From Escherichia phage LF82-1, in the sequence record PV648359: a stretch of DNA of 64,000 nt. One strand, written 5' to 3'. Every line of letters begins with the position of its first letter. Within the stretch, counting starts at the first letter, position 1. A program made the position numbers and the translations under genes. This document shows, one piece after another, positions 2,136 through 2,315 of the stretch. Under the pieces are notes generated by a model. It was given only the letters and a program-made list of their open reading frames with translations, made no database searches and was not told the DNA's origin.

Positions 2136-2315
2136 TTATGCAACAACCTTTCCAAAACGAGAAGCATCATCTCGAAGAACTGCACGTGCTCTGCGCATGA
2201 TCTTCTCAACTGTTTGATTAATACGAGAGTTCGACCCACGCTTGTATCCAGCGCGTTTAGAGGTACCATCAACTTTCTTTTCAACTGCTTTCTTTGCTTT
2301 AGCTTGTTTTGCCAT
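2136..2315 (-). CDS. small basic Lys/Arg-rich protein (59 aa), below ORF-track cutoff
   Basis: Own translation MAKQAKAKKAVEKKVDGTSKRAGYKRGSNSRINQTVEKIMRRARAVLRDDASRFGKVVA; followed immediately by terminator hairpin. Confidence 0.45.
   Translation of the reverse strand: MAKQAKAKKAVEKKVDGTSKRAGYKRGSNSRINQTVEKIMRRARAVLRDDASRFGKVVA

Follow-up and report, generated by a model that had tools for sequence, protein, structure and literature searches.

What is encoded by the short, strongly basic open reading frame (ORF) that follows rIII on the minus strand of Escherichia phage LF82-1, and is it a gene at all? The ORF lies at positions 2136..2315 of the 64,000-nucleotide (nt) stretch of sequence record PV648359 analysed here (the window), which comes from a T4-like phage of the RB69 group (Mosigvirus). 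It starts with ATG and specifies a protein of 59 amino acids (aa) with an isoelectric point (pI) of 11.4, MAKQAKAKKAVEKKVDGTSKRAGYKRGSNSRINQTVEKIMRRARAVLRDDASRFGKVVA. The initial annotation had presented it as an unannotated product missed by a 60-aa ORF cutoff. The ORF is indeed present with the translation quoted, and the cutoff is the sole reason that it was overlooked, but it is not unannotated: the record of Escherichia phage LF82-2, which together with its siblings is 100% identical to window positions 1500-3300, carries the same sequence as an annotated coding sequence (CDS), and in the record of Mosigvirus SA79RD (98.6% identity over this interval, other relatives listed showing 98.6-99.8%) the CDS bears the note 'similar to gp30.9 of RB69'. 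That the ORF is a gene, orthologous to T4 gene 30.9, we regard as close to certain. As a known conserved hypothetical gene it was already annotated, and its detection as originally stated adds nothing new.

This assignment comes from a homology search, one of the checks that had been proposed, in which residues 1-57 matched PHROG 1427 (function unknown; E=2.4e-31). The T4 ortholog is gene 30.9 (NP_049823, 58 aa), which lies between rIII and 30.8 in the reference genome and which the first sequencing work on T4 already listed as 'ORF D in the gp30-rIII intergenic region'. A tblastn search placed 30.9 in 1006 phage records, and residues 17-56 are 97.5% identical to their T4 counterparts; two Stenotrophomonas phage records are also listed, and the family has more divergent representatives in Pseudomonas phage PspYZU05 and Salmonella phage 7-11, an unrelated podovirus (Grimontviridae). 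The window protein combines the conserved motif and the amphipathic helix of the family, described below, in a chain within the family size of about 47-65 aa. An exhaustive profile search of 1.8 billion representative proteins returned 17 hits with no cellular homologue among them; these were small proteins with the same motif, except for one repeat-protein artefact and two 20-residue fragments (sequences not retrieved). Few small uncharacterised genes of T4-type phages are as well conserved as 30.9, whose range takes in phages of Aeromonas, Pseudomonas and Stenotrophomonas as well as a podovirus of Salmonella.

The reading frame itself is well defined. The ATG is the first start codon past an in-frame stop four codons upstream, so that an N-terminal extension is impossible in the window, and a purine-rich, Shine-Dalgarno (SD)-like AAAGAG (2324..2329, minus strand, read from the sequence) precedes it by 8-13 nt. 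Conservation of the frame in relatives, on which the initial annotation had made its own claim depend, was borne out: the frame is open in all 47 loci examined, both other frames on the same strand contain stops in most of these lineages, and the ratio of nonsynonymous to synonymous divergence (dN/dS) against seven divergent orthologs is 0.13-0.46. Variable alignment columns likewise concentrate at third codon positions (43, versus 29 and 25 at the others). The 61-aa ORF listed at the same place (2099..2284, minus strand) is, as had been noted, out of frame with 30.9, lying in the +1 frame of the same strand. It starts with TTG without an SD sequence, extends through the terminator hairpin downstream of 30.9 and has no PHROG or Pfam match; the +1 frame is open in the window and in T4, and in most genera beyond the T4 and RB69 types it is interrupted by 1-3 stops within the gene. 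Taken together, these comparisons indicate that 30.9 is a real protein-coding gene under purifying selection, and that the 61-aa ORF is a wrong-frame, spurious call.

Several existing records of the family appear to need correction. UniProt P17310 ('uncharacterized 11.1 kDa protein in Gp30-rIII intergenic region') gives T4 gp30.9 as a 97-aa form by means of an N-terminal extension, which is impossible in the window. The extensions behind this form and behind the 68-102-aa forms of other records differ between the genera inspected, and such non-conserved extensions look like annotation errors. Several GenBank records (e.g. AV116, T4 OL964745 and phiC600P9) name the 58-59-aa gene '1,4-alpha-glucan (glycogen) branching enzyme, GH-13-type', which also looks like an annotation error. 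In Klebsiella phage LilPanda, gp47 (locus L006 974-1147, opposite strand) is annotated as a 57-aa antisense CDS over the 3' end of 30.9 and the terminator hairpin, and is probably a spurious gene call.

The initial annotation had described the protein as highly basic, and its composition is strongly so, as in small nucleic-acid-binding proteins: gp30.9 has a mass of 6.56 kDa, a pI of 11.35 and 18 lysines and arginines versus 5 aspartates and glutamates in 59 residues, a net charge of about +12.5. Alignments of close members (A1) and of 24 distant members (A4) resolve the chain into distinct parts. Residues 1-18 form a Lys/Ala/Val-rich N-terminal arm, variable in length and sequence and conserved in composition, and residues 19-31, SKRAGYKRGSNSR, constitute an essentially invariant S-K-R-A-G-Y-K-R-x-S-N-x-R motif. 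M1, K3, R21, Y24, K25 and R26 are invariant in both alignments (R21, Y24, K25 and R26 even in Aeromonas and Erwinia phages), while S19, K20, A22, G23, S28, N29, R31 and R44 are near-invariant. AlphaFold2, run with the family alignment, predicts one confident helix at residues 30-54 (predicted local distance difference test, pLDDT, 83-88 for the block), with low confidence for the rest (mean pLDDT 67.5; 50-56 for the N-terminal block); the arm is taken to be disordered and the protein to be largely unstructured. This helix is amphipathic (hydrophobic moment 0.59, mean hydrophobicity -0.46), with a hydrophobic stripe of I32, V36, I39/M40, A43, V46/L47 and F54 and with arginine and lysine elsewhere.

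The initial annotation had placed the ORF next to rIII, and rIII is indeed the upstream neighbour, but 163 nt of non-coding sequence separate the two. For a T4-type genome this spacer (2316..2478, minus strand), which serves as the 5' leader of 30.9, is long; relatives have spacers of 120-416 nt. Blocks within it are conserved across genera with compensatory changes (alignment A2), and comparison of 43 distinct spacers revealed a mosaic of modules whose presence and order vary. Cross-genus alignment places four hairpin modules in the minus-strand leader of the window: V (2433-2476), H (2385-2432), Z (2363-2382) and T (2340-2363). Module H is the one module found in all 41 full-length Tevenvirinae spacers. 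Its stem 1 is formed by AUGACGGG (2427-2420) paired with CCUGUCGU (2408-2401), and its loop nucleotides GGUU (2414-2411) form a second helix with AACC (2389-2386) on the far side of the A-rich linker UAAAUAUCCAA, generating an H-type pseudoknot.

Covariation supports both helices of this fold. Scored together over 25 distinct sequences, they reach 0.311, versus 0.144 +/- 0.016 for column shuffles (0 of 500 attained the observed value) and at most 0.16 for controls in which the partners were slid by 1-3 columns; eight pairs were changed on both sides. Stem 2 comprises 4 bp in the window and in T4 types and extends to 7-9 bp in other genera, as in PG7 (UUGUGAG/CUCACAA), locus L029 (UUAGUAG/CUACUAA) and ABTNLPp2 (CAAGGUU/AACCUUG). 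Over its final 119 nt the leader shares 94% identity with that of T4, whereas the flanking genes show a synonymous divergence of 0.31-0.66; the leader is therefore either constrained or recently exchanged. Roughly 860 public genomes contain this region. In the minimum free energy fold of the leader, GAGAAU, which includes part of the SD-like AAAGAG, pairs with an upstream AUUUUC, a possible SD-sequestering hairpin according to this model.

No relevant Rfam match was obtained at E<=1 for the leader in the window region and eight related loci, and ARAGORN called no transfer RNA (tRNA) or transfer-messenger RNA (tmRNA) in the leaders. Simpler readings of the modules were also considered. They are not genome-wide repeats, being single-copy in the 64-kb window. 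The SA79RD record annotates the module H stem-1 hairpin as a terminator, but a mere rIII terminator is unlikely to be the whole story, as the hairpin has no U-tract and its loop covaries with a downstream segment. A readthrough or frameshift signal for rIII was rejected, the distance from the rIII stop to the pseudoknot ranging from 3 to more than 200 nt. The covarying pseudoknot and the larger RNA modules of relatives are the only parts of this locus that might be new; should the leader pseudoknot, for which Rfam has no family, be confirmed as a functional RNA, it would add a new element to a phage genome that ranks among the most intensively studied.

Two further modules occur in the spacers of relatives. 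Module X, a 135-nt, almost length-invariant and pseudoknotted element between rIII and 30.9, was found in Klebsiella phage LilPanda (L006 613-747) and in 18 other related spacers, and is absent from the window. Its carriers include Klebsiella and Enterobacter phages. Of the 39 base pairs predicted for module X, 12 show compensatory changes. Inspection by eye suggested a further covarying loop-loop helix (CGAUGG/CCAUCG), which was left unscored, and Rfam gave no match. Being present or absent among near-identical Dhakavirus-type loci, module X looks mobile, and on these comparisons we regard it as a candidate new phage non-coding RNA (ncRNA). Module Y, found upstream of 30.9 in T4 (locus L005 2170-2248, minus strand) and in IME08-type phages, is an inverted repeat, GAGGAGCCGUCGAACUGUC ... 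GACAGUUUUACGGUGUACCUC, that encloses a sigma70-like promoter, TTGATT-17 nt-TATAGT. The window has no module Y, and 30.9 here therefore probably relies on read-through from the promoters of rIII and 31.

What is known of the gene in T4 comes from genome-wide datasets. Time-resolved omics assigns the 30.9 transcript to the early class, with the protein undetected (PMC9697503 Table S2). Knock-down of 30.9 by CRISPRi-ART scored 0.04 ('Not Fit', p = 0.26; PMC11879866 supplement), and HIDEN-SEQ recovered insertions at six of six sites ('Non-essential'; bioRxiv 10.1101/2025.11.20.689424 supplement); 30.9 is dispensable for T4 in laboratory E. coli. Early, middle and late promoters all drive the neighbouring rIII, whose product binds ribosomal protein S1 (PMC9409239). 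The literature searched assigns no function to 30.9, contains no report of gp30.9 binding to DNA or RNA and yielded no T4 ribosome profiling study, and the review by Uzan & Miller does not mention the locus.

We posit, at roughly even chances, that gp30.9 is best accounted for as an early accessory protein with RNA, or some other nucleic acid, as its binding partner. Nucleic-acid binding as such, which the initial annotation had read from the Lys/Arg-rich composition and which is plausible, we place, as judged from composition and context, at even chances or a shade below, with RNA about twice as probable a partner as DNA. RNA, or a ribonucleoprotein, is preferred because of the early timing, the RNA-rich setting, the S1-binding RIII next door and a tRNA-like element upstream of the phage 7-11 homolog (see below). 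Under this account gp30.9 would have no globular fold of its own and would function by folding up on a polyanionic partner, whose phosphate backbone and bases would be contacted by the basic arm and by the Tyr-containing motif, while the hydrophobic stripe of the helix may mediate self-association or docking. The partner would more probably be RNA, either free or within a ribonucleoprotein such as the ribosome, and the role an accessory one in host takeover or RNA metabolism, important only in some hosts or conditions.

Several observations weigh against this account. A high pI alone predicts little about nucleic-acid binding, and no recognised nucleic-acid-binding domain or fold was found in Pfam, NCBIfam, PDB sequences or a Foldseek search of the PDB: Pfam (queried with the single protein and with all 24 A4 members) and NCBIfam returned only noise, the PDB sequence search gave a single, not meaningful hit at E=1.1, and Foldseek of the AlphaFold2 model found no match, as expected for a single helix. 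A relationship to the ribosome-associated proteins bS21 and RMF was rejected, hhalign giving a probability of 0.1% for each of the E. coli sequences. The protein escaped detection in the T4 time course, although this is expected of a Lys/Arg-rich 6.6-kDa protein digested with trypsin for mass spectrometry. The pseudoknot is absent beside the 30.9 homologs of Aeromonas and Pseudomonas phages and of 7-11, and since it is missing where 30.9 occurs without rIII, the leader RNA is tied to the rIII-bearing lineage and not to 30.9 itself. Protein subtypes, furthermore, do not follow leader subtypes, Klebsiella phages pairing a T4-type protein with a long T hairpin and Proteus phage ABTNLPp2 a PG7-type protein with a short one; this mismatch lends no support to a specific gp30.9-leader partnership.

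A more ambitious version, in which gp30.9 is RNA-binding or ribosome-associated, the spacer modules (H, and X in relatives) are undescribed ncRNAs and the two form an 'RNA-control island' together with RIII, strikes us as improbable. If true, gp30.9 might, for example, control its own synthesis through its leader or have host ribosomes or tRNA-like RNAs as targets. The island would then also be relevant to the long-standing observation that the set of proteins associated with ribosomes is altered upon T4 infection.

The alternative that survives best, which we nevertheless hold to be rather unlikely, takes gp30.9 for a protein-targeting effector whose C-terminal helix docks on a specific host protein (for instance an enzyme, part of a defence system, or a factor in transcription or translation). 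Solubility or electrostatic steering would be all that the basic tail aids, with no direct nucleic-acid binding. Many small T4 early proteins bind host proteins, AsiA, Alc, Arn and Stp being examples, and the single amphipathic helix is the best-predicted and best-conserved element of gp30.9; dispensability on laboratory hosts would fit a host- or defence-specific accessory factor, and the gene has been transferred into an unrelated podovirus. Against this reading, the family-wide invariant residues sit in the basic SKRAGYKR motif and not on the helix's hydrophobic face, which has diverged among the Aeromonas and Erwinia phages. A peptide that bound only protein would, moreover, hardly be expected to carry so extreme a net charge, +12.5 in 59 residues.

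Far less credible is a membrane-active cationic peptide tied to lysis or lysis inhibition. Some phages use cationic lysis peptides in place of spanins, and a cationic amphipathic helix of hydrophobic moment 0.59 encoded beside rIII invites the comparison. However, the helix, with a mean hydrophobicity of -0.46, offers no hydrophobic or transmembrane segment, and the place of the gene after 31 is kept in Aeromonas phages that lack rIII. The late lysis-cassette expression and lysis phenotype of a disruptin-like peptide are likewise not seen: the T4 transcript is early, and gene loss leaves no plaque-fitness phenotype. Finally, the view that the ORF is untranslated, the region being non-coding or the overlapping 61-aa ORF (2099-2284) the real gene, can point to the undetected T4 protein and to a +1 frame that is also open in the window and in T4, but is effectively refuted by the comparative data, given purifying selection on a 30.9 frame open in 47 of 47 loci and a +1 frame that has 1-3 stops in most genera, a TTG start lacking an SD sequence, a course across the terminator and no family match.

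The homolog in the podovirus 7-11, gp134, has an unusual setting of its own. It is preceded by a 711-nt gene-free stretch (locus L013 1733-2443) that ends in an 83-nt tRNA-like element (2326-2408), 36 nt before the gp134 start codon, with a 7-bp acceptor stem, a T arm (GGUUCGACUCC), a 3' UCCA and a fold z-score of -2.6. Neither ARAGORN nor the Rfam tRNA model called this element, and the only relevant Rfam match at the 7-11 locus was a weak one to tmRNA_permuted at 2006-2150 (E=0.003), which is below gathering and not trusted. That the family moved into a non-T4 podovirus suggests that it acts autonomously on something common to enterobacterial hosts.

Downstream, the strong terminator that the initial annotation had reported immediately after the ORF is readily recognised. 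Beginning 4 nt past the TAA stop (2138-2136), AGGGAGAC-UUCG-GUCUCCCU followed by UUUGUG occupies 2131-2106 (minus strand), forming an 8-bp GC-rich stem with a UUCG loop and a U-rich tail. It folds at -19.2 kcal/mol (z = -3.06), and none of 200 shuffled sequences folds as well. The SA79RD record also annotates it as a terminator, and each of the nine relatives inspected has a GC-rich hairpin and T-run right after the 30.9 stop, with different stem sequences; hairpin, U-rich tract and conserved position together mark an intrinsic terminator. A simple consensus terminator scan did not list the 2131-2106 hairpin, because an A-U stem extension leaves only 4 T in the 8-nt tail window, one base short. 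In most of the nine relatives the terminator is followed, ahead of 30.8, by an early-promoter-like GTTTAC box.

On the minus strand of the window the gene order is 31 (2852-3184), rIII (2479..2727; lysis-inhibition accessory protein, PHROG 1457, E=2e-43), 30.9 and 30.8 (1636..2004; Pfam PF06019, Phage_30_8, E=7e-44), which places the gene at the syntenic position of the gp30.9 family, following 31 (and rIII, if there is one) and preceding the 30.x genes and the DNA ligase gene 30 on one strand. 30.9 is the last cistron of a 31-rIII-30.9 unit that ends at the terminator (2106..2131); the downstream neighbour 30.8 apparently has its own early-type promoter, as suggested by the GTTTAC box at 2075-2070. 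The order 31-rIII-30.9-30.8 is kept across nine genera (Tequatrovirus, Mosigvirus, Jiaodavirus, Dhakavirus, Karamvirus, Moonvirus, Gelderlandvirus, Mosugukvirus and Roskildevirus), while Aeromonas phages 25 and CC2 have no rIII and carry the 30.9 homolog directly after gene 31. Amino acid identity between the window and T4 is 90% for gp30.9 and 94% for RIII, and only 39% for gp30.8. Elsewhere in the window, a 330-aa ORF (4121-5113, minus strand) adjoins the dCMP deaminase gene; its SA79RD equivalent is annotated as a Tyr-sensitive phospho-2-dehydro-3-deoxyheptonate aldolase (DAHP synthase), and if this annotation is right, the ORF would be an RB69-type auxiliary metabolic gene without a T4 counterpart at this position.

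The closest known system is T4 gp30.9 itself (NP_049823; UniProt P17310), 90% identical overall, within one residue in length, and sharing the same neighbours, the same terminator position and the near-identical 119-nt leader. The two proteins differ at the C-terminal tail (KVVA in the window, KQKA in T4) and by one extra N-terminal-arm residue in the window protein, and the T4 spacer has, in addition, the promoter-containing inverted-repeat cassette, module Y, that the window lacks.

For the leader, a natural comparison is the pseudoknot of the T4 gene 32 messenger RNA leader, the translational operator of an autoregulated nucleic-acid-binding protein. There too, an H-type pseudoknot lies in the 5' leader and is followed by A-rich single-stranded sequence. 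The gene 32 product binds nucleic acid, however, whereas gp30.9 is suspected to, and no sequence relationship between the gene 32 pseudoknot and module H has been established. Module H, for its part, stands at a variable distance from the start codon it precedes (about 65 to about 280 nt between phages), and is missing where rIII is missing.

The modular organisation, by comparison, recalls the PeSL-type mobile promoter/stem-loop cassettes of T4-type phages, reportedly described by Arbiol et al. in 2010. Their layout resembles that of the terminator hairpin and GTTTAC box 3' of 30.9 and that of module Y in T4 and IME08, and the presence or absence of modules among near-identical phages is likewise PeSL-like. 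Modules V, H, Z and T of the window leader differ in having no recognisable promoter, and module H covaries as a pseudoknot, which a DNA-level cassette would not need to do.

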